From Pirellulales bacterium (GTDB lineage: Bacteria > Planctomycetota > Planctomycetia > Pirellulales > UBA7805), in contig JAQWPY010000087.1 of NCBI GenBank assembly GCA_029245145.1, positions 1-42,905 of the forward strand: a DNA stretch of 42,905 nucleotides, in the 5' to 3' direction. The position numbers were made by a program, and so were the translations under genes. The notes under the pieces are model-generated. The model was not told where the DNA came from, did no database searches, and saw nothing but the letters and a program-made list of their open reading frames with translations. Positions 14,101-36,317 of this stretch are shown piece by piece (position 1 is the stretch's first letter; each line of letters starts with the position of its first letter).

Positions 14101-15072
14101 ATGGAGCAGGAAAACTTTGAAACCCTCGTAGACCGTGCGGTCCAAAATCGCTATGCGGCCGCTGCCGCTGAGAAAGAACCTGCCCTCTGCTGTCCCGTCA
14201 CTTACGACGGCAAGTATCTCGATGTCCTTCCTCAGGAGTTGATCGATCGCGACTACGGTTGTGGAAACCCGGCCGAATATGTCAGCGAGGGGGAAACGGT
14301 TCTCGACCTTGGCTCCGGGGGAGGAAAAATTTGCTACATCCTCTCGCAGGTCGTCGGTCCCGAAGGACAGGTATTCGGCGTCGATCGAAACGACGAAATG
14401 CTGGCTCTCGCTCGGCGCTATCAAACACAAATTGCTGAGGCCATCGGTTGGAACAACACGCACTTCTTGAAGGGAAACATCCAGGATCTCGGACTCGACC
14501 TCGAAGCCCTTGATTCCTTCCTGAGCGATCATCCGGTACACAGCTACGCTGACTGGCAGCGGGTCGACCAATGGATCGAGCAGCAGCGCGAGGCTTCTCC
14601 GATGATCGAAAGCGATTCGATCGATGTGGTCGTCTCAAATTGCGTGCTGAATCTCGTCAATCCAAAACACCGCGAACAACTGTTTTCCGAAATTTTCCGA
14701 ATACTCCGTCCCGGAGGACGGGCCGTTATCAGTGATATTGTCAGCGACCATCCCGTTCCGCTCCATCTGCAAAAAGACCCTCAGCTTTGGAGTGGTTGCA
14801 TCAGCGGAGCATTCATGGAAGGACATTTCCTCAAAGCATTCAAACGTGCTGGTCTGCATCACGTAGAGATTCTCAAAAGACAGGATGAGGCTTGGGCGAT
14901 TGTGGAGGGGATCGAGTTTCGCAGCCTCACGGTGCGGGCCGAAAAACCGACCTCAGCGTCCGCTTGCGAGGGCGAAGAGAATCGCCACGACATCACGCCC
15001 AAGCCCCGCGACATTTCCTTGACGGTCCTTCCCGGCGGCAACCGTTGCAGCCCGGACAGTGACTGCTGCTAA
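14101..15072 (+). CDS. SAM-dependent methyltransferase, arsenite methyltransferase (ArsM)-like
   Basis: 323 aa. VLDLGSGGG SAM-binding motif, upstream CCPVTYDG and DRDYGCGNP cysteine motifs, and a Cys-rich C-terminus (RCSPDSDCC), as in ArsM-type enzymes. Confidence 0.7.
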   Translation: MEQENFETLVDRAVQNRYAAAAAEKEPALCCPVTYDGKYLDVLPQELIDRDYGCGNPAEYVSEGETVLDLGSGGGKICYILSQVVGPEGQVFGVDRNDEMLALARRYQTQIAEAIGWNNTHFLKGNIQDLGLDLEALDSFLSDHPVHSYADWQRVDQWIEQQREASPMIESDSIDVVVSNCVLNLVNPKHREQLFSEIFRILRPGGRAVISDIVSDHPVPLHLQKDPQLWSGCISGAFMEGHFLKAFKRAGLHHVEILKRQDEAWAIVEGIEFRSLTVRAEKPTSASACEGEENRHDITPKPRDISLTVLPGGNRCSPDSDCC

Positions 15073-15111: not shown

Positions 15112-16815
15112 TCAATCTCGACCGACGCAGACCAGGCACATATCGTCGCTTTGCGGGTGCCCTGCAACATGCCGCTTGACGTCCTCTAGAATATGCTCAC
15201 CTAAGTCTGAAATGCTTGTCAAAGGGTCGGCGAACCGTGCCTCGAGTTGCTCGACACCATACAACTCTTCTTCGGCATTCATCGCTTCACTGAAACCATC
15301 GGTGAACGCCGCAAGACTATCACCAGGGGACAGCGTGATGGGGTAGGGTTCGTATTCAAATTCTTCGGTCACACCGATCGGAAGCCCGGCTTTTTCCGAT
15401 CCCGGCATTTCCACCGACTGATCGCCCAACCGAACCAACGGCGGCATGTGCCCTGCATTCACCAACGTGACTTTGCCGCTCACAGGTTCGAGAACCATCA
15501 GAAGCATGGTAACGAATCGATCTTCCCACCCCCCCTGATTGAACACCACATTGAGTTTGGTGACAGCCGCCGCCGGATCGGTTTCAGTCGCCAGACAAAA
15601 CCGCATTTCCGCAGAGAGTTTTGCCGTCAATAGAGCGGCCGATATCCCCTTACCCGACACATCCGCAACGATGATTGCCAATCGACCGTCTGGTAGTTCG
15701 ATGTAATCGTGATAATCTCCGCCCACTTCATAGGCCGAATCGTAGTAATCAAAAAAATGATAACCCGATATTTCGGGCGGGGCAGAGGGCAGAAAACCCA
15801 ACTGAACTCGACGTGCCATTTGAAGATCTCGCTGCAACGCTTGTTGCTTCAACTTATCCTCATGCAACTGCGCATTTTCCACTGCCAACCCCGCAGGTGC
15901 AGCGACCCCTCCCAACACCTCGAGATCATCATCTTGAAATCGAGTCGTTTGATTGAGGGTATCGATTTGAATCACGCCCAATGGGTTCCCTTCACTATCG
16001 AGCAGCGGCGCACACATCATCGAACGAATGCGGAAGTCGGCGATACTTTGACTCATTTGAAAACGGCTGTCGGTTGCCGCATCGGCAGAGAGTACCGCTT
16101 CCTTACTCCTCATCACTTCATCGACGATCGTACGACTAATGCGAATTTCATCGTCGTCGTCAGGTCGGCGGAATTTGACAGCCTTGGGAACCAAGCGGCC
16201 GTCGTCGCCCTCTTTAAGCACAATAAATCCGCGATCCGCCTGAGGGAAAATCGTAAATAAACTGTCGACCACCTTCGGCAAAACTTCGTCGAGTGAGAGA
16301 GATTTGCTCAAACTTCGAGTGATTTCCAAAACCGCTTTAAGCTTCGTGATCGGGTTAGTGTCGAGTCGCATCCGCGCCGTGTCGGACACCTCAATTTTAG
16401 TCATCACCTTGGAACCGCTCGGGGCCTCTCGATCGTCGTCGATTACCACCGACTGAGAGGAGCCGGGATCGATTGCAAAACCGGTATCTCTCGCCGCCGC
16501 CGTCTGCTTCTTAACGAAATCGTGATCTTCGAAACGAAAGCCGACATCACAGATTCTTAAACTATCGGCGTGCCGCAACAATTGCCGTCCATCGATTCGT
16601 TCATCGTTGACGAAGGTTCCGTTCCGACTCTGCAAATCTTCGATGTAAAATTTTCCGTCCGCCGCCGTAATCTGAGCGTGGTGCCGGCTGACTGCTCCCG
16701 CATTGATATGAATCTCGCAGTCCGGATGCCGTCCCATGACCATCGTCGCTTGGTCGATCTCGTATTTTTGCCCCATGTCGGGGCCCACCGTCATAATCAA
16801 ACTTCCACCGGACAT
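15112..16815 (-). CDS. FHA - GAF - PP2C/SpoIIE-type serine phosphatase
   Basis: 567 aa. N-terminal FHA pattern (MGRHPDCEIHINAGAVSRHHAQI...NGTFVN), a central GAF-like region, and a C-terminal SpoIIE/PP2C region (GGDYHDY, VADVSGKGISAALL, DGFSEA). Confidence 0.85.
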   Translation of the reverse strand: MSGGSLIMTVGPDMGQKYEIDQATMVMGRHPDCEIHINAGAVSRHHAQITAADGKFYIEDLQSRNGTFVNDERIDGRQLLRHADSLRICDVGFRFEDHDFVKKQTAAARDTGFAIDPGSSQSVVIDDDREAPSGSKVMTKIEVSDTARMRLDTNPITKLKAVLEITRSLSKSLSLDEVLPKVVDSLFTIFPQADRGFIVLKEGDDGRLVPKAVKFRRPDDDDEIRISRTIVDEVMRSKEAVLSADAATDSRFQMSQSIADFRIRSMMCAPLLDSEGNPLGVIQIDTLNQTTRFQDDDLEVLGGVAAPAGLAVENAQLHEDKLKQQALQRDLQMARRVQLGFLPSAPPEISGYHFFDYYDSAYEVGGDYHDYIELPDGRLAIIVADVSGKGISAALLTAKLSAEMRFCLATETDPAAAVTKLNVVFNQGGWEDRFVTMLLMVLEPVSGKVTLVNAGHMPPLVRLGDQSVEMPGSEKAGLPIGVTEEFEYEPYPITLSPGDSLAAFTDGFSEAMNAEEELYGVEQLEARFADPLTSISDLGEHILEDVKRHVAGHPQSDDMCLVCVGRD

Positions 16816-18329: not shown

Positions 18330-19625
18330 GTGTCCGGCATCTTAATTACCAACGGTCGGGTCGTCGATCCATCGCAAAGCATGGATCGCGTTACCAATAT
18401 CCTGATCGAGGAAGGTAAGGTCGCCGCGTATGACGTCGCGATCGATGCGGGTTCAACCAACGGTTCGACGATCACCCTCGACGCGTCGGGAAAGATTGTC
18501 GCCCCCGGTTTGATCGACATGCACGCGCACTTGGGTGAACCGGGTGGCGAGGAAGACGAAACGATCGAGTCGGGCACTAAGGCGGCACTCTCCGGGGGAT
18601 TTACCTCGATTGCTTGTGCCCCGAACACGAATCCCCCGATCGATACGCAAGGGACCGTGCAGTTTGTCAAACAACAAGCCGCAGACGCCGATAACTGTAA
18701 CGTCTACCCGATTGCCTGCGTGAGCAAGAATCGATCGGGGGAGGAACTCGCAGAGATGGGCACGTTGGTCGATGCGGGTGCCGTCGCTTTCAGCGATGCA
18801 TGTTCTCCTGTTTCGAATCCCGAACTGATGCGGCGTGCCCTCGAATATCTCCTCATGTTCGACAAGCCGCTTTTGAGCCACCCCGAAGTGCGAGAATTGA
18901 GCGGCGATGGCGTGATGCATGAGGGTCTCGTCTCGACCGTGCTCGCGTTACCGGGAATGCCGGCAGATGCGGAGGCGGTCATGACCAGTCGCGATATATC
19001 GCTGGCGGAATCGACCGGCGGTCGGATTCATATGATGCATATTTCGGCTGCGGGCAGTATTGATCTCATTCGTCGGGCAAAATCGCGGGGTGTTCGCATC
19101 ACCGCCGAGGTCAGTCCCCAACATTTCAGTCTCACCGACGAATCGCTCCGCTCATTCGATTCGAACTGCAAAATCAACCCACCACTCAGAGGTCAGCAGC
19201 ACGTTGATGCCTGTATCGCAGCGCTCAAAGACGGCACTCTTGATGTGATCGCCTCAGACCATCAACCGCAGGCCGTCGAAAAGAAAATGCAGGAACTCGA
19301 TCAGGCTCCTTTCGGCGTCATTGCACTGGAGACCACCCTGGCACTGGTGATCACAAAACTGATCCGCCCGGGACATCTTGATTGGCTCTCTGCACTGGAG
19401 AAACTGACCATTCGGCCGGCACGCGTCTTGGGAATTCCTAAGGGAACGTTGCAAATAGGTGCAGATGCCGATGTCACGATTATTGATCCGGATGAAACCT
19501 GGACCGTCGATCCGGAGCACTTTTTCTCAAAAAGTGAAAATACGCCCTACCGTGGTGAAACGCTCTATGGCCGCGCCAGTACGGTGATCGTATCCGGAGC
19601 GGTCAAATTTGAGCGGAACGCGTGA
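18330..19625 (+). CDS. pyrC: Dihydroorotase (long, allantoinase-like type)
   Basis: 431 aa with a GTG start that has GGAGGG 6 nt upstream. DMHAHL metal-binding motif and a late SDHQP motif. It follows pyrB directly. Confidence 0.9.
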   Translation: MSGILITNGRVVDPSQSMDRVTNILIEEGKVAAYDVAIDAGSTNGSTITLDASGKIVAPGLIDMHAHLGEPGGEEDETIESGTKAALSGGFTSIACAPNTNPPIDTQGTVQFVKQQAADADNCNVYPIACVSKNRSGEELAEMGTLVDAGAVAFSDACSPVSNPELMRRALEYLLMFDKPLLSHPEVRELSGDGVMHEGLVSTVLALPGMPADAEAVMTSRDISLAESTGGRIHMMHISAAGSIDLIRRAKSRGVRITAEVSPQHFSLTDESLRSFDSNCKINPPLRGQQHVDACIAALKDGTLDVIASDHQPQAVEKKMQELDQAPFGVIALETTLALVITKLIRPGHLDWLSALEKLTIRPARVLGIPKGTLQIGADADVTIIDPDETWTVDPEHFFSKSENTPYRGETLYGRASTVIVSGAVKFERNA

Positions 19626-19651
19626 TCGCCTCTCCGTGTCGAGAACAATTG

Positions 19652-20251
19652 ATGGCTTTGATTATCGATGGTTACAACCTGCTCAACGCGGTTGGCATTC
19701 ACGCGCCCCGACATGGGCCACACAATCTTGAGGGAGCACGCGGGGCCCTCTTGCAGTTTCTCGTAGCCACACTCTCCGAGGAAGATCGCGCGAGAACGAC
19801 AGTCGTTTTCGATGCGGGCCCTGAAGCACCCCGGGGGCTACCGAGAAGATTGGTCGATCGGGCAATGACCATTCATTTTGCTGCGCAATACGACGATGCG
19901 GACACACTGATCGAAGAGTTGATCCGCAGCGACTCGGCTCCGCGCAACCTGACGGTCGTCTCGAGCGACCATCGCATTCAGCGGGCCGCGAGACGACGCA
20001 AAGCGGAGGCCATCGACAGTGAAGTCTGGTACGCTCGAGTTTGCCAAAAACAAATCGAACACAACCACGGCGGCGTGGATAAACCCCTTCAGGCTAACTC
20101 CCCGGCAGAAGTCGATTATTGGATAAAGAAGTTTAAGTTAAAAGATTCGGAAGAAAAGATCGACGATTCCCCCATCACGAATCAGGGGGCCGGCCCTTTT
20201 CCTCCGGGTTATGCGGAAGATTTGCTCGAAGAAGAAGATCGCCCATCCTAG
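19652..20251 (+). CDS. NYN-domain (YacP-like) predicted RNA-binding/ribonuclease protein
   Basis: The track ORF starts at a GTG at 19622, overlapping the pyrC stop. The ATG at 19652 gives MALIIDGYNLLNA. VVFDAG and VVSSDHRIQ match the YacP-like NYN pattern. Confidence 0.65.
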   Translation: MALIIDGYNLLNAVGIHAPRHGPHNLEGARGALLQFLVATLSEEDRARTTVVFDAGPEAPRGLPRRLVDRAMTIHFAAQYDDADTLIEELIRSDSAPRNLTVVSSDHRIQRAARRRKAEAIDSEVWYARVCQKQIEHNHGGVDKPLQANSPAEVDYWIKKFKLKDSEEKIDDSPITNQGAGPFPPGYAEDLLEEEDRPS

Positions 20252-20282: not shown

Positions 20283-21227
20283 ATGAAAAATCGTCATCAG
20301 ACACTCTCGTGCATTTTGCTCATCGCGGCGTGGCAGGTGATCCTCGCAACCGGCACTTCCGAGGCGGGCGAGTCGGCGACCTTTCGATTTGAACCCTCCG
20401 ATCATGGAAAAACGCTCTTCACGCCCGACGGCCGTGTCGTATTCCAGTACATGATCCAAAAGCCAGAGAAAACGAATCTTTCCGCCAACAGCACCTGCTG
20501 CCTCTATCCCTTAAACTCACCCAAAGGAACACGTGTGGTTGACCTCGCGCCAGGTGATCATCGCCATCACCGTGGCGTATTTTTAGCCTGGCATGCCATG
20601 CAATTTACGGAGCGGGCCGATTTTTGGGGATGGGGGGAAATGGCTCCCACGGAGAACAGGAAAATCGACAATCTCTCCCTGCGGCTCGTTGAAGCAGGTG
20701 TGGATCGGGCAAAAGTTTCAGCGAAAAACGCTTGGAAAATTGGCGACCGAACGGTCCTGCATGAAGAGTGCCTTCTCACTGTACAAGAAAAAAACGCAAC
20801 ATTCGTTATCGACTTTCACTTTCGACTTACGCCGACAGAAAACATGGTGCTCGACCGTAGTGCATTCGGAGGTTTTTGCATTAAGAGTCGCCAAGATGGC
20901 ACGCGAATATTTTTCGATCCACAGGGAAAGGTAGACCTCTCTCCACCGCACCATCTGAAGCCGGAAACCGACTGGCCAAACGCCCCTTTCTATGACTATA
21001 CCTTCGTGCTTCCCTCCGGGGAAAAGGCGGGGATCATGGTGATGAGTGGACCGGAAAATCCGCCCACACGATGGCACAATCTTCTTTCGATCGCGATGAT
21101 CAATCCGTGCATCGTCGCGGCAGACAGCGTGCAAGTCGAAAAAGAAGAAACGCTCTCGCTCCGGTATCGACTGATCGTTCACGATGGCCCGCGACCGGAA
21201 GCCTTCTCACCCCTGAGTAGAAAGTGA
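20283..21227 (+). CDS. Secreted PmoA-like / DUF6807-family protein
   Basis: 314 aa with an N-terminal signal peptide (LSCILLIAAWQVILA). GDHRHHRGVFLAW followed by ADFWGWGE is as I recall for the Pfam family historically called methane oxygenase PmoA. Confidence 0.55.
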   Translation: MKNRHQTLSCILLIAAWQVILATGTSEAGESATFRFEPSDHGKTLFTPDGRVVFQYMIQKPEKTNLSANSTCCLYPLNSPKGTRVVDLAPGDHRHHRGVFLAWHAMQFTERADFWGWGEMAPTENRKIDNLSLRLVEAGVDRAKVSAKNAWKIGDRTVLHEECLLTVQEKNATFVIDFHFRLTPTENMVLDRSAFGGFCIKSRQDGTRIFFDPQGKVDLSPPHHLKPETDWPNAPFYDYTFVLPSGEKAGIMVMSGPENPPTRWHNLLSIAMINPCIVAADSVQVEKEETLSLRYRLIVHDGPRPEAFSPLSRK

Positions 21228-24392: not shown

Positions 24393-25715
24393 CTACTTGC
24401 CGTCAAACTGCTCGGCCAACAATCGCCCCAACTCCGGACCGCGGGCGTCGAGAGAAATCACTTTCCCTTCCCGATCCACAAGAATCACCGTGGGAATTCC
24501 CGAAATCCCGTAACGGCGCACCAACGGATTGTTGAAACCGGTCTGCCCAGGCTGATCGTTGAAAAGCGTTTTCCATGGTAGCTTTTCCTTCTGGAGGAAT
24601 GCTTCCACAGTTGACTTTTCGTCGTCGATATTCACGCCGATCACATCGAATCCCTGATCGTGATATTTTTCATAATTGGCAATCACATTCGGAAATTCTG
24701 CTCGACAGGGCCCACACCAAGTAGCCCAGAAATCGACCAACACGACCTTCCCGCGGTACGATGCCCAATCCAACGAACTGCCATCGAGAAAGGTGCCCGA
24801 AAGCTCCATCTGATGACCGGGTAATTCCAACCGCCGCGCTGTTCCCTCAAGCCTTGAGGCGAGCTGCTTTATTTGTGGCTGATCGCTGGCAGCAAATTTT
24901 TGAGCAAAAAACTTGCTCAGTTGCACCGCCGCGGATGTCTGTCCCAGTCGTTCGATCTGCGTGAGAACGTCCTCGATCGTTTGCACATCTTGGACCTCGA
25001 TGGTGCGGTCTGCATACTCTTGCTTCAAGAGGCCGACCACGCGGGCCACATCCTCGGGACCCGAACTAGGAGTCAGTTGCAACTGGGACTGCAAGAGCAA
25101 CTGTTTTCCGAGCGCCGCAATCTGGGGTCGCGAATCCTGGCTGACCTCCTCGAGAAAAGGGGTGAGCTTGGCAATCGCATCCGATCCATCAAGTTGACCG
25201 ACGGCCATCATTGACTGCACGGTCACCTGTACTGCCATTCCGGCCGTTTGAAAATCATCTTTGGCCACTTGGCTTGCTCTAAAGAGTTCCTTTGCTTCAG
25301 AGGCAAGCTTTTCAAAAGGGGCCGCCGAGGGCTTCTCCCCGCCAAGTCGCGCCAAGAAAGTCTGAGCCCTGTACTGTGCCGTAAGGGCAATTGCGGCGAA
25401 ATTCAACTCCTTGGCATCTTCGCCCTTGATCGCTTTGTCGTACAGAACTCGGGCAACCTCCAGCATTTCCTCCTGAATCTTGCGGTAGTTACCGAACATT
25501 TCCTCCCGCGTGTTCCCTTTGGGCGTCTTTCGATTCAAATCCATCAATCGCGCGTGCAGGTCCTGCAGCGATTCTTTCTGCAAATCAACATCCCCTTCCG
25601 TCGCAGAGGGCTGCCCAGCATTCGCTTGCTCATCAGCCCAAAGGGTAGACGAGAAGCCCCACAACAAGAGGAAGCTGGAGCAAAAAAGAAAATCGCGGTG
25701 GCGAAACATAGACAT
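24393..25715 (-). CDS. TlpA-like periplasmic thiol:disulfide oxidoreductase with a long N-terminal helical domain
   Basis: Track ORF runs to 25814. The ATG at 25715 gives MSMFRHRDFLFCSSFLLLWG, a signal peptide. The C-terminal thioredoxin fold carries WATWCGPC. Confidence 0.8.
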   Translation of the reverse strand: MSMFRHRDFLFCSSFLLLWGFSSTLWADEQANAGQPSATEGDVDLQKESLQDLHARLMDLNRKTPKGNTREEMFGNYRKIQEEMLEVARVLYDKAIKGEDAKELNFAAIALTAQYRAQTFLARLGGEKPSAAPFEKLASEAKELFRASQVAKDDFQTAGMAVQVTVQSMMAVGQLDGSDAIAKLTPFLEEVSQDSRPQIAALGKQLLLQSQLQLTPSSGPEDVARVVGLLKQEYADRTIEVQDVQTIEDVLTQIERLGQTSAAVQLSKFFAQKFAASDQPQIKQLASRLEGTARRLELPGHQMELSGTFLDGSSLDWASYRGKVVLVDFWATWCGPCRAEFPNVIANYEKYHDQGFDVIGVNIDDEKSTVEAFLQKEKLPWKTLFNDQPGQTGFNNPLVRRYGISGIPTVILVDREGKVISLDARGPELGRLLAEQFDGK

Positions 25716-25852
25716 GACGGAGCCTTTCTCAAGTATCGCTAGGGAGGTTGTCGTTTTTTTAAGATTTTTTTCAGATATTGCTGCCCCTCGTTGCGTGGGA
25801 CACCGGCGTCGCATTCTACTCCAGCGGCCACCTCAGCGACTAGAAGGCAAGC

Positions 25853-26650
25853 TTAAAATCGCCCCCTTTTCCGTTCTTTTGCCGGCAGACTCTCGAGACA
25901 TGTGGTCCACCAACCGGTCATGATCGTCTCCTGGAATTCTTCGGGCAGTCCCTCCGATGCCATCTCGCGGGCAAGGCGTTGAAAATCGTAGGCGACCGGC
26001 ACAAATTGAATTTCCAACGGTTTCTCATCATGCTCTGAGAGGATCGCGTACCACACGCATGTTTGTCCGTCATTCTCCGGACGCCCCAACACGCCCACAT
26101 TGACAAAGCGTTTGTCGCCATTGAGATGACGGCTCCACTTGATCCCCGTATGCGTCGCGCAGAGGCAGTCGACTTCAAGGTCGTCGAGCATGACATTCAA
26201 ATAGTGCGTGCTTGTCGTACTCTCCCAAAGAAACTCGTTCACCTTCGTCGGGCTACCGTGGCAAAGCAAAACCCGGTGCTTTCCCATCTCGAACTGAATT
26301 TTTTCCGGAAGGCCTCGAAGCAGGGTGCGTCCAGCACTCGAAGTATTCTCAAGCGTGTAATCGTAGCTTTTCTGAGCGTAATGGTTATCTCGTGGATCAG
26401 TGTAGCCGCACCGGCAATCGTCGAGAGCATGGCCGACCGAGTGATCATAGTTTCCTTGAATGCTCTGCACATCGTACTGCTGCAAAAGCGGAAAGACCCG
26501 ATCCGGGTAGGGCCCAAACGCCCCCAGATCACCGAGACAATAAATTGCATCGACGCCCGCTTCGCGAATTTGCCGAAGGGCCACCTGCAGCGCAAGATAG
26601 TTGCTGTAAATTCCGCCGAGTAATGCAACCCGTGTCGCAGCGATGCTCAT
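25853..26650 (-). CDS. Metallophosphoesterase-family protein
   Basis: 265 aa with the motifs GDLGAFGP, GNYDH and HTG. An unusual Cys insert DDCRCGY is present. The ATG overlaps the stop of the upstream radical SAM gene (ATGA). Confidence 0.8.
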   Translation of the reverse strand: MSIAATRVALLGGIYSNYLALQVALRQIREAGVDAIYCLGDLGAFGPYPDRVFPLLQQYDVQSIQGNYDHSVGHALDDCRCGYTDPRDNHYAQKSYDYTLENTSSAGRTLLRGLPEKIQFEMGKHRVLLCHGSPTKVNEFLWESTTSTHYLNVMLDDLEVDCLCATHTGIKWSRHLNGDKRFVNVGVLGRPENDGQTCVWYAILSEHDEKPLEIQFVPVAYDFQRLAREMASEGLPEEFQETIMTGWWTTCLESLPAKERKRGRF

Positions 26651-27576
26651 TCTGTCGACTTACTGAAAGAGGGAACGCGATAGCCGGCCGAGGGATTGGA
26701 ACAAATCGCGCCGTGTTGGTAGCAAGTCAGACACGCCCCATGTTTGAGCGCAAAACTCTTATCCGCATCGCCAAGCTTCGCACCGAGAAGTGAATCGGGC
26801 ATTTCGAGTAAAATCGGGCAGACATGCACGCCTCGGTCTGAAACGATGCGACTCTGCTCGCAAATGAATTGAGACGTATCGTACCCCTCGAGCATCGCCT
26901 CGGTCACGCGGTCCGATGCTGCATACGGGGATGACCGCGTCTCTTCAGCGCCGAGCCGGAGCATGGGCAAAATTTTAAGCCGCGGCCTCCGGCAACCGGC
27001 CCCTCGCAACCGGTCGAGAAAGGCGTCGACAACGCGATCCTCCTCCTCAAGACGCCAACTCCGAGCAGCGGTAACGATGGGAAGAAAACCAAATTCATTC
27101 AGAAGTGCGACTCCCTCCATCGCTCGGTCAAACGTACCCTCTCCCCGAATCGGATCGTTCTGCTCTGCACAAAAACCGTCGATCGAGATACGAAACTCGA
27201 GACTGTAGCAACTCGCCTCTTCAGCAGCTGCAAGTTGTTCGAGCCATCGCTCCTTTAGCACGGTTCCGTTGGTTAACACCGTGGCCGGACCATACTCGAG
27301 CGCATCGATAAGAATGGGCACCATCTCCGGGTTGAGAAACGGTTCTCCCCCGGTAAAGTAATATTCCTTGACCCCCACATCAACCGATTCGTCGAGATGC
27401 GTGCGCACTTGCGCACGCGACATGAATCCGAAGGAATCGTTTTTCGGATGACAGCTAATGAAACAATGGTAGCAGTGCAAATTGCAAAGCGTGCCTGACA
27501 CCTGAAACCAGAGGTGCTTAAGCTGCGTGAGCGTAATCTCAGGCGACGATCGATCAGGGGAACAACTCAATTGCAA
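26647..27576 (-). CDS. Radical SAM enzyme with a C-terminal Cys-rich (auxiliary-cluster-like) region
   Basis: 309 aa. CNLHCYHC is a CxxxCxxC site and FTGGEPFLNP a SAM-binding motif. The C-terminus reads CPILL...HGACLTCYQHGAIC (C-x2-C-x6-C). Confidence 0.85.
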   Translation of the reverse strand: MQLSCSPDRSSPEITLTQLKHLWFQVSGTLCNLHCYHCFISCHPKNDSFGFMSRAQVRTHLDESVDVGVKEYYFTGGEPFLNPEMVPILIDALEYGPATVLTNGTVLKERWLEQLAAAEEASCYSLEFRISIDGFCAEQNDPIRGEGTFDRAMEGVALLNEFGFLPIVTAARSWRLEEEDRVVDAFLDRLRGAGCRRPRLKILPMLRLGAEETRSSPYAASDRVTEAMLEGYDTSQFICEQSRIVSDRGVHVCPILLEMPDSLLGAKLGDADKSFALKHGACLTCYQHGAICSNPSAGYRVPSFSKSTE

Positions 27577-27618
27577 TCCCTTTCGCTGCTCATCTGTTCC
27601 GCTGGCCTTGCGCGTAGA

Positions 27619-28896
27619 TCATTCCCTCATTGTACGGTAAAGATCGAGATTCGCATCGCCACGAATGGAGGCAAAGACCTGTCGCACTTGCTCAAGCCCC
27701 ATAGAGATTAAAAAGCGGGAATCCCGCCCATAGCTTTTGTTTCCGATGAGAAAGTAATTTGGCTCTGAAGTGACGAGCAGGTTTCCGGCCGGCACCTCCT
27801 GACCGAGACAATCGGTCGCATTTTGCTCCACCAGATGCATGGCCAACTTCATGGGCGCTTCGCTCACGTGGCAAAGCTGCACCTGCAACTCGGAAAAAAG
27901 AGAGCAATCGGGACGAAAGCCCACGTGAGCCAGAATTGAATCGCAGGTGACCTCGTGGTTTAACTCATCCGACGCTTCTTGCATGTTAAGCAGCTCTACT
28001 TCAAATGCTCCTGAGCCGCGGAGGCGACGCACCGTCTCCACTGTCCGGTGCGGCAAATAGGTAACAACTGCATCCGATCCCATTGCCAGACGGTTTGCCC
28101 GATCGGTCAAGTGGACGCGATCCTGTAGTGGATCCCCCGGGATCTCAAAGAGAGGGGCCCCCTCTTTACCGCGCGGCCTGCGGACCACCCACGAAATGCG
28201 CGTCTCTGGAACCGACTCGGCCAAGGCGGCAAGCGCAACGACGGACGTGGCCGCCGAACAGCCTCCGCCAACGACCAAAGCGTGTCGACCGGCAAAACGG
28301 CAACTACGATCTTTGCCGATCGATGGAAGTTGGTAATCGATGTCGCCGGCAAGTTGACGCTCCCCCCGTGCCGGTACGCCTCCCCTGCCGAGGTAACAAT
28401 GCTGCGAGTAAACCCCCGTTGCATCGATAATCACATCTGCTGTGGCTACCGATTCCTTACCCGTCGAATCGCAAAGCAGTAATCGGAAGGCGGCATCTTT
28501 CCGATCGATCCCGCAGCCATGGTCGCTTTTCGAAAGATTGGCACGACCGATCGAAAGCACTCGAGTCTGCTCATGAACAACCCCGGTGAGTAAATCGGTC
28601 TTTACAAGGGGAAGAAGGAGGCGTTGCAGATACTCTTGCCCGGTGAGCAGCGCCGCATCCTCGGGGGCTTGCCACGCGGCATCCTGAGCCCGAAGGGCGG
28701 CAACCGCCAGTGGGGAGCGATTCATCGCGAAGGGGGTAAACAATTTTACATGCCCCCACTGCTCTACATGATGCCCCACCCTCGCCTGCTCATAAAGCTT
28801 GACATCGTGGCCGAGAAACCGGCCATAGAGGGCCGCCTCGATCCCGATCGGTCCTGCCCCCAAGACGGCAATCGACGGCAACGAGGTTTCCATCAT
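27619..28896 (-). CDS. FAD/NAD(P)-binding oxidoreductase with two dinucleotide-binding domains
   Basis: 425 aa. N-terminal AVLGAGPIGIEAALYG is a FAD GxGxxG site. A second site, VVGGGCSAATS, lies mid-protein. Confidence 0.75.
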   Translation of the reverse strand: MMETSLPSIAVLGAGPIGIEAALYGRFLGHDVKLYEQARVGHHVEQWGHVKLFTPFAMNRSPLAVAALRAQDAAWQAPEDAALLTGQEYLQRLLLPLVKTDLLTGVVHEQTRVLSIGRANLSKSDHGCGIDRKDAAFRLLLCDSTGKESVATADVIIDATGVYSQHCYLGRGGVPARGERQLAGDIDYQLPSIGKDRSCRFAGRHALVVGGGCSAATSVVALAALAESVPETRISWVVRRPRGKEGAPLFEIPGDPLQDRVHLTDRANRLAMGSDAVVTYLPHRTVETVRRLRGSGAFEVELLNMQEASDELNHEVTCDSILAHVGFRPDCSLFSELQVQLCHVSEAPMKLAMHLVEQNATDCLGQEVPAGNLLVTSEPNYFLIGNKSYGRDSRFLISMGLEQVRQVFASIRGDANLDLYRTMRE

Positions 28897-28927
28897 GTTC
28901 TCCCCGGTCCAGCAGAGTGCATCCGCC

Positions 28928-30058
28928 TCACCCTACCGCCGCAGCCGTGCGAGCTATACGAAAGTCGTCGTGGGCAACGGTGGGGGTCTCTCCCTGCATC
29001 AACTCCCGGGCCAGCACGGCGGTCGCCGGCGAGAGAAAGAGTCCCCATCGGTAATGACCTGCCGCGACCCAACCATTGGTGAAACCGGGAACCGCACCGA
29101 TGTAGGGATAGCCATCGGGACTTGCAGGGCGAAATCCGGCCCAGCACCGCTCGACTTCTGCCAACGCAAGCATCGGTACTCTGTTTTGCGCGAATCGAAG
29201 CAACGCACCGATTGCCGAAAGCGTTGTCTTCTTTTCGAATCCCACATCTTCCAAAGTCGACCCCACCAACACGCGTCCATCGGGGCGAGGAACCAGGTAG
29301 TGGCTGCCTTGATGAATGATACGCTCGATTACCAACTGATCGCCCCGCAAAAGTACCATTTGGCCCCGGATCGGTTTCACAGGCAGGGTGAAGCCCAGCA
29401 TTGCGGCCAACGGGGTCGTCCAAGCTCCTGCGGCGAGACAAAAGTGGGCGGCTGAAAAATCGCCAGCCGTCGTCTGCACCGACCTCATCGTTTCACCCCG
29501 GCAATCGAACCCCAACACGTCCGCCCCTTCGGTGATTTGCACCCCTCGTTGCCGGCAAGCTTCCTTCAGTGATCGCAAATAGCGCGGATTGCGGATTTGT
29601 GCCGAATTCGGAGTGTAGTAGACCGCTCCATTCGCAATTTCTTCCTGCGAGACGACGAGATTCGGTTCAATCTGCCCTATGCGGTTGCGATCCATCAACT
29701 CCACCTGGACGCCGCGCGATTCGAGAGCCAGTCGGCCGCGGGAAAGAGGTTCACCGGGAATCTCCTCTTCTTCGAGAAAGAGTTCCCCACAGCGCCGATA
29801 CCCCGTATCGATCCCTGTTTCGTTTCTTAGTTCATCGGCCCACCGCGCATGCAACTCCGCGCTCATCTGAGCGAGTCGTTCATAAGCCCCTGTCGCGGCT
29901 TTGTCGCTCGTTGCCGGCAGAATACCGGCTCCGGCCCACGACGCTTCTTGACCGCATCGATTTTTCTCGACCAACTGAACTTGCCAGTCGTGCCGTGAGA
30001 GTTCATAGGCAATCGAAAGACCGACCGCACCACCACCGATAACCACACAATCATTCAT
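28928..30058 (-). CDS. FAD-dependent oxidoreductase, DAO family (glycine oxidase ThiO-like)
   Basis: 376 aa with N-terminal VVIGGGAVGLSIAYEL followed by EASWAGAGIL. Length and C-terminal pattern match DAO-family amine oxidases. Confidence 0.75.
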   Translation of the reverse strand: MNDCVVIGGGAVGLSIAYELSRHDWQVQLVEKNRCGQEASWAGAGILPATSDKAATGAYERLAQMSAELHARWADELRNETGIDTGYRRCGELFLEEEEIPGEPLSRGRLALESRGVQVELMDRNRIGQIEPNLVVSQEEIANGAVYYTPNSAQIRNPRYLRSLKEACRQRGVQITEGADVLGFDCRGETMRSVQTTAGDFSAAHFCLAAGAWTTPLAAMLGFTLPVKPIRGQMVLLRGDQLVIERIIHQGSHYLVPRPDGRVLVGSTLEDVGFEKKTTLSAIGALLRFAQNRVPMLALAEVERCWAGFRPASPDGYPYIGAVPGFTNGWVAAGHYRWGLFLSPATAVLARELMQGETPTVAHDDFRIARTAAAVG

Positions 30059-30166
30059 ACGTTCAATCTACTCCCGCCGGATAGACTCGCAAGGTGGCCG
30101 TGATGATTGGGGTGAAAAAGCACGAAAAGCACAACGATCGCGAAGCAGTGGTGAACCTATCCACCA

Positions 30167-30910
30167 CTAGTCTTGCGGGTGGCCGATGAACAAGCCCTTG
30201 CAGATTTCATGAATTTGGCCGTAGAGCCAGTTGAGATTCGCATCCTCCGCATCTTGACCGTCTTTCGAATCATTGCGAATCGAAGCCAATTCATTCATCA
30301 GGCGGGAGAGATCTTTTTCGTGATCGATGTCATACCACGAGGGCAATATTTTGGCAGACCAGTTGAGCGTCGAAATTTTTTCGCGGGTCTGCTCCCAGAC
30401 CAAATCACTTCCCCAACGGATGTTGGTTGTGAGAGGTTCCACAGGCCGGGTGGCGCCGATCAAACAATAGCCACCATCCTCGCTCGGAACGAACGCAAGG
30501 TCGTGATGCTCCAGCGCCCGGAAAGCCGCAGCAACGCTCGCGATGGGTAGACTCGGCGCATCGGCACCTACAAGCACTACCCGCTCGCTCCCCGAAGCAA
30601 ATGCTTCTTGAAAATAGTTTGCAATCCGCTCGCCAAGATCTCCCGAGACTTGCGCCAACAGTTTCCAGCGACCGCCCGATATTTTATCAAAGTCGGCCCG
30701 CGTTTGTTCTGGAGTAAAGCTCAGTACGTGGCGATCAGCCACTGAGGAAAATCGGCACAGAGTCGATTCGAGAAATGCACGATGCAGTTGCGCGGATCTC
30801 TGTTCTCCACAGAAATCTGCCAAACGCGTTTTAACCCGTCCCGGCGACCAGTGCTTGGCAAGGATACCGAATTGCGTCGATTCTTTCGAGCGACTGCCTT
30901 CCGTCATCAA
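30167..30910 (-). CDS. DUF2064-family protein (CofC/MobA-like nucleotidyltransferase fold)
   Basis: 247 aa with the motifs PGRVKTRL, GDLGERI, VGADAPSL, EDGGYCLIG and WYDIDHEKDL. All are characteristic of DUF2064 as I remember it. Confidence 0.8.
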   Translation of the reverse strand: MMTEGSRSKESTQFGILAKHWSPGRVKTRLADFCGEQRSAQLHRAFLESTLCRFSSVADRHVLSFTPEQTRADFDKISGGRWKLLAQVSGDLGERIANYFQEAFASGSERVVLVGADAPSLPIASVAAAFRALEHHDLAFVPSEDGGYCLIGATRPVEPLTTNIRWGSDLVWEQTREKISTLNWSAKILPSWYDIDHEKDLSRLMNELASIRNDSKDGQDAEDANLNWLYGQIHEICKGLFIGHPQD

Positions 30911-30985
30911 TCGTCCTTTGCAATGGCCATACGAGCAACTTCAATCGACAAACCGGCAACCCTGTCCACACGGAAAAAAATAAAA

Positions 30986-31255
30986 TCAGGGGAGCAACCG
31001 CCGAAGCAACCTGCGATCGATGCGACCTCGGAATCGAATTTTTCCATCGATCTCGACGACCGGAACACACTCATCGAATTGAATCTGTAAGCGGGGGTCG
31101 TGATCGATATTGATCTCCTTTGGAACCAAACCATGCTCAGACAAAATATCCTTCGCGTCTTCACAAAGATGACAGCCATCGCGGGTGTACAGCACCACGC
31201 GGGGCAAGGATGACGACTGCCGGAGATGGGAAAAAAGCCAACCGAATAATTTCAC
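30986..31255 (-). CDS. Glutaredoxin-like protein (DUF836-type)
   Basis: 89 aa. VVLYTRDGCHLCEDAKDIL is a CxxC site in a thioredoxin-fold context, and VPVVEIDG is also present. Confidence 0.75.
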   Translation of the reverse strand: MKLFGWLFSHLRQSSSLPRVVLYTRDGCHLCEDAKDILSEHGLVPKEINIDHDPRLQIQFDECVPVVEIDGKIRFRGRIDRRLLRRLLP

Positions 31256-31365: not shown

Positions 31366-31544
31366 CATCTCAAATTGTAACAATCCTTTGAGAGAAAACT
31401 AGAATTCTTCTCGACAACGTGCTAGTCTAATGTCTTCAAAGCAAGCGCAACGCCCCAGTTTGGATTGCACCGCAGTCCGACATAAACCACTTCTCGGGAG
31501 CAAGAGCGGCGGCTGATTTGATTCTCTGTCTCCGCAGGCGTGAC

Positions 31545-33200
31545 ATGGCAACTGTCAGCGTAGAAAAACTGCTCGATTTATTAAAGCGGAGTGGGCTGGT
31601 TGAAAATCCCGATCAGATCACAAAAGCACTCGGTGCGCTCAAGGATGAATCGGGGGGACTCCTGCCGGGAGATTCCAAGGTGGTCGCGAATTTTCTGATC
31701 GAAAAGAAAATGATCACCGTCTGGCAAAGTGAAAAACTCCTTGAAGGGCGCTACAAGGGATTCTTTCTTGGCAAATACAAGTTACTAGGCCACCTCGGCA
31801 CGGGTGGCATGAGCAGCGTTTATTTAGCCGATCACGTACTCATGCAGCGGCGGGTTGCGATCAAAGTTCTACCTAAGGGGAAGGTGGAGGAGTCTTCCTA
31901 CCTGGCGCGCTTCAAAAAGGAAGCACAGGCTGCAGCGAGGTTTGATCATCGCAATATCGTACGGGCATACGACATCGACGAGGACAAAGGCACTCACTAT
32001 CTCGTGATGGAATTTATCGATGGAACTGATTTACAAAAATTGGTGAAAGAGACCGGTCCACTCGAATACGAATTGGCAGCACAATACATTGCCCAGGCAG
32101 CCGAGGGGCTGCAGCATGCCCATGAAGCCGATATCGTACACCGAGACATCAAACCGGCCAATCTATTGGTCGATGAAAGTGGCGTTGTCAAAATCCTCGA
32201 CATGGGGCTCGCGCGGCTTGATGACGGAGACGACGAGCAGGCATCGCTCACGGTAATGCATGACGAGAATGTCTTGGGCACAGCCGATTATTTGTCGCCG
32301 GAACAGGCGGTCAACAGTCATTTGGTGGATGGGCGTGCCGACATCTATAGCCTCGGTTGCACATTTTACTACATTCTCACCGGCCACCCACCCTTCCCCG
32401 AAGGCACGCTACCACAACGCATTCTCGCGCATCAAAACAGCACGCCCGAAAGTATCCGGAAAGATCGGGCCGACGTGCCGCCGGAACTGTTGGTCATTTG
32501 CGAGCAGATGATGGAAAAAAAGGAAGAAGATCGGCAACAGACGGCGGCCGAGGTTGCACAGCAGTTAGGCTCCTGGCTGCAAGGCCTCGGAAGCAATTAT
32601 GCGGGCTCAGACAATCCATCGAGTAGCGGCATGTCAGCTGCCCTGACGGCGACCTCTTCCCGACCGATCGGAGGCAGCGGAGATACAAAAAAATCGAAGC
32701 CCCGAGTGCAAGTCACCCGGCGGAAAGGGCAACCTCAGAAAACGCGGCCCTCCGATACCCTCACCGATGCGACCGGAAACACGGTGGCAGACCCTGCCGC
32801 TTCAGCAAAAATAGCCGAATCGAGTAGAGCCACCAAACCGGTTACGAGGCAAAAGAAACAGCCCCAGTCGGCAACCCCTTCGGGCCAGGGCCCCATTGTC
32901 ATCGATACGGAAGGTCCTGCGAAAACAAAAGGCGAAAGCAAATCGGGGCCGACCGAAAAAAAGAGCGACTCACGGAGTGCAAAAAGAAGGTCCGCAAGCA
33001 ATCCGAGAAAGCAGACGCGTCGCAGATTTCCCGATTGGATCTGGTACGTCATCATCGCTCTGGCCGCCGTGGTGCTGCTGATTCTTGTGGTGATGAAGCT
33101 GACCAGTAGCGGACCAGTAGCGGACCACTCAGCTGACGGTACCGCCACATCTCGATGTGTTCTTTGCTTCGAAACGCGCCGAAGTGACGAACTAGGCTAA
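31545..33200 (+). CDS. Ser/Thr protein kinase, C-terminally membrane-anchored
   Basis: The track ORF starts at 31518; the ATG at 31545 gives MATVSVEKLL. Hanks-type kinase motifs GTGGMSSVY, AIKVL, HRDIKPANLL, DMG and GTADYLSPE. A long Pro/Ser/Lys-rich linker is followed by one TM helix (WIWYVIIALAAVVLLILVVM) near the C-terminus. Confidence 0.9.
   Translation: MATVSVEKLLDLLKRSGLVENPDQITKALGALKDESGGLLPGDSKVVANFLIEKKMITVWQSEKLLEGRYKGFFLGKYKLLGHLGTGGMSSVYLADHVLMQRRVAIKVLPKGKVEESSYLARFKKEAQAAARFDHRNIVRAYDIDEDKGTHYLVMEFIDGTDLQKLVKETGPLEYELAAQYIAQAAEGLQHAHEADIVHRDIKPANLLVDESGVVKILDMGLARLDDGDDEQASLTVMHDENVLGTADYLSPEQAVNSHLVDGRADIYSLGCTFYYILTGHPPFPEGTLPQRILAHQNSTPESIRKDRADVPPELLVICEQMMEKKEEDRQQTAAEVAQQLGSWLQGLGSNYAGSDNPSSSGMSAALTATSSRPIGGSGDTKKSKPRVQVTRRKGQPQKTRPSDTLTDATGNTVADPAASAKIAESSRATKPVTRQKKQPQSATPSGQGPIVIDTEGPAKTKGESKSGPTEKKSDSRSAKRRSASNPRKQTRRRFPDWIWYVIIALAAVVLLILVVMKLTSSGPVADHSADGTATSRCVLCFETRRSDELG
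33101..33128. repeat. Perfect 11-bp tandem duplication plus a partial third unit inside the kinase 3' end
   Basis: GACCAGTAGCG (33101-33111) equals GACCAGTAGCG (33112-33122), followed by GACCAC. The unit length is not a multiple of 3. Confidence 0.92.
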
Positions 33201-33730: not shown

Positions 33731-33764
33731 CTTTAGCGTTTCAGCGTCTTTAGCGTTTCAGCGA
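33731..33764. repeat. 17-bp tandem duplication spanning the larE stop codon
   Basis: CTTTAGCGTTTCAGCGT (33731-33747) is followed by CTTTAGCGTTTCAGCGA (33748-33764), 16/17 identical. The larE stop occupies 33750-33752. Confidence 0.9.
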
Positions 33765-34577
33765 TAGAGGCAACACCAAATTCTGACTTCCCGAGCGAAA
33801 CCCTTCCAGATCGAGACAGACGTAGCGAAATCCAATTTTGTGAAATTCCGCGATGAGCCGCTCACGAGTTTCCGGATCACCCAACTCTCCCACTCGATCG
33901 CCGGGAACCTCGACCCGCGCCAGGTCGCCCTTGTGATAGCGAACCCGCACCGTACCGTAACCCGCCTTCCGTAGATATTGCTCGGCTCGATCAATCATCG
34001 CGAGACGATCTTCATTTACCTCTTCCCCGTAGGCAATGCGGCTTGAGAGACAGGGGGTTGCCGGTTTATTCCACACCGGCAATTCCCAATATTTTGCCAA
34101 GCGGCGCACGTCCGCTTTGTGCAGCCCACACTCGGCCAACGGACTGCGTACGTTCCAATCGGCGGCCGCTTCAAGCCCCGGACGATAGTCTTCACAGTCA
34201 TCCAGATTTGCCCCGTTGAGCATCACGTCCGTCCGCCAACGCCCCATATTTTTGTGAATCTCGGCATAAAGCTCGTTTTTACAGTGGTAGCATCGGCGGG
34301 GCGAATTGGCACTGTACTCCGGATTCTCAAGCTCACGGGTCTGCAGGATTTCGTGGCGAATGCCAATTATTTTTGCAACCTGACGGGATGTAGACAACTC
34401 TTCCGCCGCGAGACTTGGGCTCACCGCCGTAACCGCCACCGCGCGATCCTTTAGCGCAAGCTGCGCCGCCTTGGCCACAACCGCACTATCGACCCCACCG
34501 CTGAAAGCGACGGCACAACCATCGAACCCCTTGAGAAGGGAAAGGATCCGATCGACGGTTTCTTCAATCTGCGGCAT
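33750..34577 (-). CDS. larE: ATP-dependent sacrificial sulfur transferase LarE-like (PP-loop ATP pyrophosphatase)
   Basis: 275 aa with the AFSGGVDS PP-loop and the PCLSSR motif that carries the sacrificial Cys in LarE. Overall length matches the family. Confidence 0.8.
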   Translation of the reverse strand: MPQIEETVDRILSLLKGFDGCAVAFSGGVDSAVVAKAAQLALKDRAVAVTAVSPSLAAEELSTSRQVAKIIGIRHEILQTRELENPEYSANSPRRCYHCKNELYAEIHKNMGRWRTDVMLNGANLDDCEDYRPGLEAAADWNVRSPLAECGLHKADVRRLAKYWELPVWNKPATPCLSSRIAYGEEVNEDRLAMIDRAEQYLRKAGYGTVRVRYHKGDLARVEVPGDRVGELGDPETRERLIAEFHKIGFRYVCLDLEGFRSGSQNLVLPLSLKR

Positions 34578-35119: not shown

Positions 35120-36205
35120 TTAACTCTTGATCACGTCCTCGATCGCCCGAACCACTGGTTCGAGAAACTTTGTATTTCGATCGAGTGCCACAACGACCGT
35201 TTTTTGCTCAAGTCCGTCCGCCCGCGTCGACGACATCGGAATCACTTTTCTTCCATCTTCGAGTCGTACGCGTACGGTAAAACTACCATCCTCCCGCAAC
35301 TCAAGCGGTTCGCCGCGAAATACAACGTGCGATCCGGGGGTCGTCTGTCCATAGATGATCAATTCGGAGTCCACTTCAAAGGGGAAATCCTGCTTCTTCG
35401 CTGCGATGGCATCAGCTCCAATGCCATAGCGTGTCACCAGTGGTGAACCCATCGGGCGACGCAACCTCTCTTCGAACAGATCGCGGAGGTAGTCCGCATC
35501 TCCCCCTTCTTCCAGTCCACCACTCATGGCGTAAATTTTGTCGCACTGATGAGCCACGTCCTGCCAATTTTCGTCTAGAACCGCGTTATCCTCTCGCGGT
35601 CGCGTGGTCACGGTATTGCTCGTCGCGAGACAGTGGAAACGTTCCCCGGCCAGAAACCCGATTTTGACGCGGAAGGAGGCGGGCGGATCAGCAACGTCGA
35701 TATACCAGTTGTTCACCTTACCGTGGATCGGAATATCACGAATCACGCGTTCGCTCACTTTCGCCGAGGCCGTTTGACCTGCTTCCACGAGTCTCAGTGT
35801 CGGCTGAGCACGATGCCAATCGCGATCGAGGGCGGCTGCCGCCCGCTCGATACTCTGCCGCTTCAGGTCCCAGGAGGCTTGCAGCCAGTAAGGATCGCGA
35901 ACGAGCAAGACGATCGCGTCCGCTTTGCTCCGGACCGGACGGCGGGACTGACCCTGTTTTATGGCATTGACCAACCGCTGCGCGGACTGAAATTCACCCG
36001 TCTCCGCTTCGCCACGCGCCTTTTTCACGCTCCTCGCTCGCGAGCCATCCAAAGTGCCCTTCCGCCGCGATTTGCGACGGGTCGCCAAAAGAAGAGCACG
36101 TACAAGCTCTTCCTTCCGCATGGCATGCCACCCGGAAACTCCGTCTTTTTTAGCCAATTGAGCCAGATCTTTACACGTGAGTGCACGCAGGGACGCAGCA
36201 GTCAT
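35120..36205 (-). CDS. DUF4912-domain protein with an N-terminal Rho_N/SAP-like helix-hairpin
   Basis: Track ORF runs to 36220. The ATG at 36205 has GAGGGAG 7 nt upstream. N-terminal LTCKDLAQLAKKDGVSGWHAMRKEELVRALL resembles the Rho N-terminal/SAP motif. The remainder resembles DUF4912 proteins as I recall them. Confidence 0.65.
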   Translation of the reverse strand: MTAASLRALTCKDLAQLAKKDGVSGWHAMRKEELVRALLLATRRKSRRKGTLDGSRARSVKKARGEAETGEFQSAQRLVNAIKQGQSRRPVRSKADAIVLLVRDPYWLQASWDLKRQSIERAAAALDRDWHRAQPTLRLVEAGQTASAKVSERVIRDIPIHGKVNNWYIDVADPPASFRVKIGFLAGERFHCLATSNTVTTRPREDNAVLDENWQDVAHQCDKIYAMSGGLEEGGDADYLRDLFEERLRRPMGSPLVTRYGIGADAIAAKKQDFPFEVDSELIIYGQTTPGSHVVFRGEPLELREDGSFTVRVRLEDGRKVIPMSSTRADGLEQKTVVVALDRNTKFLEPVVRAIEDVIKS

Positions 36206-36317
36206 CCGAGTCTCCCTCATTGGGCGTCAAGTTATTTATTCTCCGAAATCCCGGCTGCCAAGGTTCTTTACCGTGCAGACCCTCGACACATGCGGAGAAG
36301 TTGATATGTCTACTCTG

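Follow-up and report, generated by a model that had tools for sequence, protein, structure and literature searches.

A Planctomycete locus with a conserved flavoprotein–radical S-adenosylmethionine–phosphoesterase trio: a probable mosaic of two gene modules

A 42,905-nt stretch of DNA from a Pirellulales bacterium (contig JAQWPY010000087.1; hereafter the window, meaning the whole stretch) carries seven closely spaced genes on its minus strand between positions 24393 and 31255, among them an enzyme of the radical S-adenosylmethionine (SAM) type, two flavoproteins and a DUF2064 protein. Do these genes serve one undescribed pathway, as a first-pass annotation of the sequence had proposed? All seven open reading frames (ORFs) lie where that annotation had placed them, Pfam and NCBIfam bear out its domain calls, and the motifs it had quoted (GAGPIG, GGGCSA, CNLHCYHC, C-x2-C-x6-C and DDCRCGY) are present. 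The reading that we favor, with a probability of roughly 0.6, sees the locus as a mosaic in which two modules, conserved separately, lie beside one unrelated neighbor. Module A consists, in order of transcription, of a flavoprotein with GAGPIG and GGGCSA sites (27619-28896, 425 aa), the radical SAM enzyme (26647-27576, 309 aa, TTG start) and a metallophosphoesterase-fold protein (MPE) with the DDCRCGY insert (25853-26650, 265 aa). Module B comprises a glutaredoxin (Grx)-like DUF836 protein with a CHLC motif (30986-31255, 89 aa, GTG start), the DUF2064 protein (30167-30910, 247 aa, TTG start) and a DAO/ThiO-like glycine oxidase dependent on flavin adenine dinucleotide (FAD; 28928-30058, 376 aa). 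The neighbor is a TlpA/ResA-like exported thiol-disulfide oxidoreductase with a WCGPC motif (24393-25715).

A scan with one genome per species gave at least 586 relatives of the radical SAM enzyme, and the best 80 loci anchored on it, all from Planctomycetota, were used for synteny. The seven proteins and the flanking genes were searched against these loci by tblastn within 10 kb of the radical SAM gene, each count being taken only among loci with enough flanking sequence. The flavoprotein gene lies directly upstream of the radical SAM gene in 57 of 66 loci, and the MPE gene directly downstream of it in 56 of 75. The expectation that the neighborhood is conserved across Planctomycetota thus held for this trio; it failed for the seven genes together, as the ThiO-like gene adjoins module A in 22 of 59 loci (28 of 59 if any position in the locus is counted), the DUF2064 gene is adjacent in 19 of 56, and the TlpA-like gene is present downstream of the MPE gene in only 7 of 67. 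Unbiased clustering of ORFs recovered the radical SAM family in 74 loci, the flavoprotein in 65, the MPE in 52, ThiO in 29, a protein kinase in 25 and DUF2064 in 24, with every remaining ORF family found in 18 loci or fewer. Some of these minor neighbor families resemble IspH, prolyl oligopeptidase and MetH, as judged by eye without a family scan.

The junctions between the genes were compared across the same loci. The median gap is 9 nt from flavoprotein to radical SAM gene, −4 nt from radical SAM gene to MPE and 2.5 nt from DUF2064 to ThiO (24 loci); from ThiO to flavoprotein it is 109 nt, with a gap of 20 nt or less in just 1 of 23 loci. These gap statistics place the module boundary between the ThiO and flavoprotein genes. 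In the window itself, the gaps from the Grx-like to the TlpA-like gene measure 75, 108, 31, 42, −4 and 137 nt, the negative value being the overlap of the MPE ATG with the radical SAM stop codon as ATGA, just as first described. Module B also moves relative to module A: it is inverted and 7-8 kb upstream in two loci (L015 and L060), about 5.5 kb upstream in two others (L021 and L034) and downstream in another (L057). Many loci, including that of Adhaeretor mobilis (L045), lack it within 10 kb of the radical SAM gene. On synteny together with the junction statistics, a single seven-gene operon or co-conserved unit is therefore rejected.

Module B has a cohesion of its own. ThiO and DUF2064 occur together in 26 of 30 loci, and the Grx-like gene accompanies DUF2064 in 21, lying directly upstream of it also in L085, L088, L148 and L164. 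Divergent from the Grx-like gene, and beyond the coordinates covered by the first-pass annotation, stands a Ser/Thr protein kinase gene (31518-33200, plus strand; PF00069, 175 bits); of the 26 loci with this kinase, 25 contain DUF2064 as well. In a single metagenome-assembled genome, the divergent kinase and Grx-DUF2064 genes lie on one contig (L164), and the flavoprotein and radical SAM genes on another (L052). Since the arrangement is kept in L164 without ThiO and the radical SAM gene, the kinase with the divergent Grx-DUF2064 pair may be the tightest conserved unit of module B.

The TlpA-like gene belongs to neither conserved module and is a lineage-specific, unrelated neighbor. Its product, with Redoxin, AhpC-TSA and Thioredoxin_8 domains, falls short of the equivalog cut-offs. 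The longest ORF reaches position 25814, 99 nt upstream of the start at 25715, and the latter start gives a plausible signal peptide. The N-terminal stretch of about 300 residues ahead of the redoxin domain has no Pfam match.

The genes of module A, uncharacterized and strongly conserved, are tightly coupled, and the unit is restricted to the Pirellulales/Planctomycetales part of Planctomycetota. The 120 best database matches of the radical SAM enzyme are 63-97% identical to it, and those with an organism name all come from Planctomycetota. The closest locus, from a marine Planctomycetaceae assembly labeled as a metagenome-assembled genome (isolate AH-324-P18; L001, CACOUL010000007.1, 86756-107682), comes from a near-identical genome: it keeps the gene order of the window with proteins 88-98% identical, the radical SAM enzyme being 96% identical. 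Between distant members of the clade, the trio members are still 60-74% identical, and the trio, carried by at least 586 species-level genomes, ranks among the more strongly conserved uncharacterized gene sets of a large bacterial clade; an unnamed radical SAM family and an atypical Cys-rich phosphoesterase-fold protein belong to it. Such conservation points to a core function, concerning a cofactor, lipids, nucleotides or the modification of proteins, that is undescribed in Planctomycetes, a group increasingly tractable genetically. In the literature, we found no papers on DUF2064, on Rv1681 with radical SAM, or on a radical SAM enzyme with a metallophosphoesterase in Planctomycetes.

Membership of the radical SAM superfamily is clear (PF04055, 68.2 bits against a gathering threshold of 29.5), and the enzyme represents an unnamed family within it, as judged from family models. 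The CX3CX2C motif is formed by C31, C35 and C38, followed by C42, and the C-terminal region contains C239-x13-C253 and C282-x2-C285-x6-C292. These four N-terminal and five C-terminal cysteines are invariant in 22 homologs, over which the mean column identity is 71%. Among NCBIfam models, that of the Rv1681 family scores highest, with 93 bits (cut-off 380); the NCBIfam matches cover only the core (residues about 10-170), and none comes near a family cut-off. Among solved structures and structural neighbors, the core shows a low-scoring likeness to BlsE, SkfB, viperin, SuiB and MoaA. The core resembles these SPASM/twitch and nucleotide-acting enzymes in both sequence and fold, and the spacing of its C-terminal cysteines recalls the auxiliary-cluster domain of the SPASM/twitch enzymes. 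However, Pfam SPASM is not reported at E ≤ 0.01 for this region, where the pLDDT of the AlphaFold2 (AF2) model is below 50; the five-Cys tail together with C42 forms a distinct invariant signature of the Planctomycete family; and BlsE, SkfB, SuiB, MoaA and viperin lack the obligatory flavoprotein and MPE partners of the window enzyme.

The flavoprotein of module A has two dinucleotide-binding domains, for FAD and NAD(P)H, and passes only Pfam Pyr_redox_2 and no NCBIfam cut-off. Its AF2 model (pLDDT 93.4) was compared with solved structures by Foldseek. The top match is the bacillithiol-disulfide-reductase-type protein Bdr/YpdA (7a76; E 5e-19, TMt 0.86), followed by ferredoxin/flavodoxin-NADP+ reductases (FNRs) of the thioredoxin reductase (TrxR) type and by TrxRs themselves; the FNRs matched are 6gar, 3ab1 and 3lzw. 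The two-Rossmann FAD/NAD(P)H fold is common to all of them. At the family level it fails both Bdr/YpdA (TIGR04018, 28.5 bits against 339.9) and thioredoxin reductase (TIGR01292, 24.6 against 343). Compared with Bdr/YpdA it is only about 16% identical, about 100 residues longer and fixed beside a radical SAM gene. The FAD motif of Bdr contains a cysteine, where the window protein has GAGPIG. No cysteine is invariant among 37 homologs, which rules out a CxxC disulfide-reductase mechanism; in lacking a CxxC redox disulfide the protein resembles the FNRs. These features would suit an NAD(P)H-dependent electron donor as well as a substrate reductase. Homologs at about 40% identity, the named one being from Gemmataceae, lie in unrelated contexts with no radical SAM neighbor, so the pairing of flavoprotein and radical SAM enzyme is specific to the clade.

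The third member of the trio matches PF12850 (43.7 bits against a gathering threshold of 27) and no NCBIfam model. Relatives of known structure are SapH (3qfm), two Pyrococcus proteins (1nnw and 2gju) and 3rqz. It belongs to the same subfamily as these SapH/PF1291-type metallophosphoesterases, with GN[W/Y][D/E] and the C-terminal 'LPEE...G' in common. The motifs GD, GNYD, CHGSP and THTG are present, and the canonical set of metal ligands (D-x-H, GD, GNH[D/E], H and GHxH) is incomplete: motif I reads GGIYSN in place of SDIHGN in SapH, so that Asp and His are replaced by Gly and Tyr, as in the uncharacterized Pyrococcus proteins. In contrast to SapH-type enzymes, it adds five cysteines (C38, C79, C81, C130 and C251) that are invariant among 19 homologs with a mean column identity of 74%; C79 and C81 sit within the DDCxCGY insert, which is confined to the Planctomycete family. 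Either cysteines may act as ligands in the active site, or the protein may bind an iron-sulfur (Fe-S) cluster in place of the usual dimetal center.

Module A most likely acts on a small molecule rather than on a peptide. We propose the following putative model. The radical SAM enzyme would bind one cluster through CX3CX2C and one or two auxiliary Fe-S clusters in its SPASM/twitch-like five-Cys tail, and would use a 5'-deoxyadenosyl radical to transform a phosphorylated substrate that probably resembles a nucleotide or a sugar. That the substrate is a nucleotide or bears a phosphate is suggested because BlsE, viperin and MoaA are among the nearest solved radical SAM enzymes and because the coupled partner has a phosphoesterase fold. 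The flavoprotein would pass NAD(P)H electrons to the clusters of the radical SAM enzyme or to the product, and the MPE, which is presumably translationally coupled to the radical SAM enzyme, would bind or hydrolyze a phosphate ester of the substrate or product.

Several observations weigh against the mosaic and against this model of module A. Module B lies near module A in 15 of the 33 loci with full flanks, compared with at most 3 of 33 for other window neighbors, and the A-B adjacency is scattered over the whole radical SAM tree. Both facts indicate that the arrangement is probably ancestral in the clade and has been broken many times, so that a functional link between the modules is possible and not required; the proximity argues for some functional coupling instead of full independence. 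Apart from ThiO and TIGR04282, no partner scores above any characterized-family cut-off, and the first-pass statement that no named pathway can be assigned stands. Promoter and terminator scans gave counts at chance level and are uninformative. As for the individual proteins, the MPE, being without the motif-I metal ligands, is perhaps no hydrolase at all, and the AF2 model of the radical SAM enzyme is poor at both termini, including the cluster-binding parts (pLDDT 56). Moreover, the next-best profile and structure matches of the radical SAM enzyme are the peptide maturases StsB, WgkB, MftC, SkfB and SuiB, which make a protein substrate encoded elsewhere possible.

This last point leads to an alternative that we consider rather unlikely, in which the radical SAM enzyme is a SPASM/twitch-type maturase of a protein or peptide encoded elsewhere, for instance an enzyme like the anaerobic sulfatase-maturating enzymes (anSMEs) acting on Planctomycete sulfatase-like proteins; the flavoprotein would then be its reductase, and the MPE-fold protein its target or chaperone. 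After Rv1681, the best NCBIfam matches are indeed StsB (60 bits), WgkB (53 bits) and MftC (52 bits), SkfB and SuiB are among the structural neighbors, and some family members carry the JGI annotation AslB-like. The arrangement C-x9-G-x3-C plus C-x2-C-x6-C presumably resembles the SPASM signature, and the degenerate catalytic motif and invariant cysteines of the MPE would be in keeping with an Fe-S protein or a target of modification. However, these maturase matches are confined to the core, and the nucleotide-acting BlsE, viperin and MoaA match the enzyme equally well. At 309 aa it is shorter than anSMEs, and it has five auxiliary cysteines compared with seven or eight. A dedicated peptide is not apparent either: no complete ORF of 12 aa or longer fits into the two gaps flanking the flavoprotein gene, and no conserved small ORF accompanies the trio across the 80 loci, the recurrent matches being antisense shadows inside ThiO. 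The absence of a precursor peptide, already remarked on for the intergenic gaps of the cluster, therefore extends to its relatives, and a cluster for a ribosomally synthesized and post-translationally modified peptide with an adjacent precursor is rejected.

The view closest to that of the first-pass annotation joins the six cytoplasmic genes of modules A and B into one pathway paralleling the ArsS/TIGR04282/TIGR04283 arsenosugar-type system with non-orthologous parts, and we hold it to be unlikely. The radical SAM enzyme would place a 5'-deoxyadenosyl group, or one related to it, on an acceptor such as a metalloid; processing of the adduct would fall to the DUF2064 protein, the phosphoesterase and the flavoproteins, and an ArsM-like methyltransferase encoded at 14101-15072 on the plus strand would supply the methylated substrate. 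The DUF2064 protein does pass TIGR04282 (176.3 bits against a cut-off of 134), as the label given in the first-pass annotation implied. It also matches PF09837 (97 bits) and CofC (47.6 bits), has a GT-A/nucleotidyltransferase fold with 3cgx as its solved relative (187 bits), and on TIGR04282 its relatives reach 179-181 bits in L085 and L088. Automatic public annotation labels these DUF2064 genes 'TIGR04282 family arsenosugar biosynthesis glycosyltransferase' or 'rSAM/selenodomain-associated transferase 1'. Furthermore, canonical TIGR04282 loci also contain a radical SAM enzyme and a pyridine-nucleotide-disulfide flavoprotein, so that the classes of parts are similar, and module B is found near module A far more often than other neighbors are, across the radical SAM tree.

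The radical SAM enzyme itself does not carry this parallel. Like ArsS, it has about 300 aa, a CNxxCxHC motif and a Cys-rich tail, but its score on TIGR04167 (ArsS) is 50.4 bits against a cut-off of 300, with residues 17-164 aligned, and ArsS is only its fifth-best NCBIfam match; a true ArsS from locus L145 reaches 395 bits. Profile-profile comparison of the full-length families by hhalign gave a probability of 98% (E 2.6e-14). When the alignment was split, the N-terminal core gave E 2e-15 and the C-terminal 115 residues a probability of 0.4-0.8% (E 0.07-0.14). The signal thus comes from the N-terminal core only, and the enzyme is not ArsS: with the C-terminal Cys domain lacking a profile match, that assignment is ruled out, and the ArsS layout once ascribed to the enzyme does not extend beyond the cysteine spacing. 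The ArsS literature that we found holds nothing relevant to this radical SAM family.

The partners of DUF2064 tell a similar story. In a second locus scan, anchored on DUF2064, only three loci (L085, L088 and L148) resemble the window. In the wider family, DUF2064 is partnered by a glycosyltransferase of TIGR04283 (274 bits, cut-off 182; 25 loci) and by true ArsS (395 bits, cut-off 300; 10 loci), whereas in the window and its Planctomycete relatives it is flanked by the Grx-like and ThiO genes, the canonical partners appearing only in more distant members. Distant DUF2064 homologs lie in unrelated contexts. No TIGR04283 match was found among the scanned window ORFs or among the recurrent neighbors in the 80 loci. 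The window flavoprotein has the Bdr/FNR fold and no BLAST-level homology to the MerA-like one of the ArsS loci. This MerA-like FAD-containing oxidoreductase (NF004991, 750 bits against 620) recurs in canonical ArsS/DUF2064 loci (L119, L121, L132, L134 and L159), as does a DUF547-like protein, named by eye and without an NCBIfam match; neither companion is reflected in the TIGR04282, TIGR04283 or ArsS family names. The name 'arsenosugar biosynthesis glycosyltransferase' for the DUF2064 protein therefore rests on a family-level hidden Markov model, and the genomic context here gives it no support. The name should be used with caution at this locus, as the partners that gave rise to it, ArsS and TIGR04283, were found neither there nor among the recurrent neighbors.

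The methyltransferase gene is likewise remote from the trio. The ArsM-like protein scores below every ArsM cut-off (NF040538, 319 against 500; PRK11873, 185 against 263; NF038099, 103 against 400). In the window it is separated from the cluster by pyrB, pyrC and other housekeeping genes, and none of the 80 related loci has it within 10 kb of the radical SAM gene. It is, however, 52.6% identical to a methyltransferase (L132:802-1611) with the same NCBIfam score profile; this relative is encoded some 0.7 kb upstream of a true ArsS, and its locus has a TIGR04283-type GT2 and a DUF2064 gene as well. The likeness leaves a weak form of the arsenosugar idea standing. Compared with the ArsS/TIGR04282/TIGR04283 set, the window thus shares a TIGR04282-scoring DUF2064 protein, an FAD/NAD(P) flavoprotein and a related methyltransferase, and differs in lacking TIGR04283, in pairing DUF2064 with a glycine oxidase and a Grx-like protein, and in the want of synteny between methyltransferase and radical SAM genes. 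Two further points stand against the arsenosugar parallel: the modules are apart in more than half of the loci, and arsenic-resistance islands are patchy, whereas here sequences stay 60-70% conserved across families within a core-genome setting. In its most ambitious form, the idea of one pathway would make A and B a single undescribed route built from ArsS/TIGR04282 enzyme classes with non-orthologous parts, near-universal in Pirellulales/Planctomycetales and leading to a new nucleotide- or 5'-deoxyadenosyl-derived product, possibly containing a metalloid, with the MPE-fold protein as a new Cys-ligated metal or Fe-S protein; we regard this as no less doubtful.

Beside DUF2064, module B contains the one flavoprotein that falls into a characterized family. 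The first-pass annotation had counted such an assignment against a new pathway, and the DAO protein provides it, with 263 bits on the ThiO model TIGR02352 (cut-off 250.8) over residues 5-355 of 376 and 258 bits on PF01266. Its best solved relatives are all glycine oxidases, including those of Geobacillus (4ysh, 173 bits) and B. subtilis (1ng3, 136 bits). The match to ThiO is full-length and above the cut-off, but the margin is narrow, the gene lies outside any thi operon and it is coupled to DUF2064. In module B, the oxidase would turn glycine or a related amine into an imine, and the DUF2064 protein would act as a nucleotidyl- or glycosyl-transferase. The Grx-like protein matches PF05768 (52.5 bits) and PF00462 (39.8 bits).

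That ThiO passes its cut-off and resembles solved glycine oxidases could also mean that the adjacency of all these genes is meaningless, with ThiO serving thiamin thiazole formation beside an unrelated redox flavoprotein and a generic phosphatase. The remainder of the window is housekeeping in character, being core genome with argG, metK, trpBA, a tRNA, pyrBC, LarE and the atp operon and without an island-like anomaly in base composition, and the chance-level promoter and terminator counts also fit unrelated genes. Against this, the order, strand and overlapping junctions of the trio are kept amid entirely different neighbors, which makes a meaningless adjacency unlikely for module A, and the pairing of flavoprotein and radical SAM enzyme is confined to the clade. 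In module B, the tight junction of DUF2064 and ThiO recurs; no thi genes occur in the window or among the recurrent neighbors, and an Rfam scan of the cluster found no RNA element and hence no thiamine pyrophosphate riboswitch. We judge a chance assembly of housekeeping genes to be quite improbable for the locus as a whole.

An anti-phage defense system around a viperin-like radical SAM enzyme is effectively refuted, as the PADLOC pVip match (45 bits) is weak and, like the Foldseek match to viperin, limited to the core, NCBIfam viperin NF038283 gives 41 bits against a cut-off of 180, the other six proteins have no PADLOC match, and the family occurs almost universally and is conserved vertically, with 60-70% identity, in core-genome surroundings of ordinary composition.

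A few further genes of the window deserve mention. Beside the ArsM-like gene, positions 15112-16815 on the minus strand encode a 567-aa FHA-GAF-SpoIIE (PP2C-type phosphatase) signaling protein. Proteins with DUF6807 (20283-21227, plus strand), a YacP-like NYN domain (19622-20251, plus strand) and DUF4912 (35120-36220, minus strand) are interspersed among the housekeeping genes, and NCBIfam assigns no function to any of the three. A LarE-type ATP-dependent sacrificial sulfur transferase (33750-34577, minus strand; 304 bits, cut-off 150) has no LarB or LarC beside it in the window and is found near the cluster in only 3 of 33 loci.

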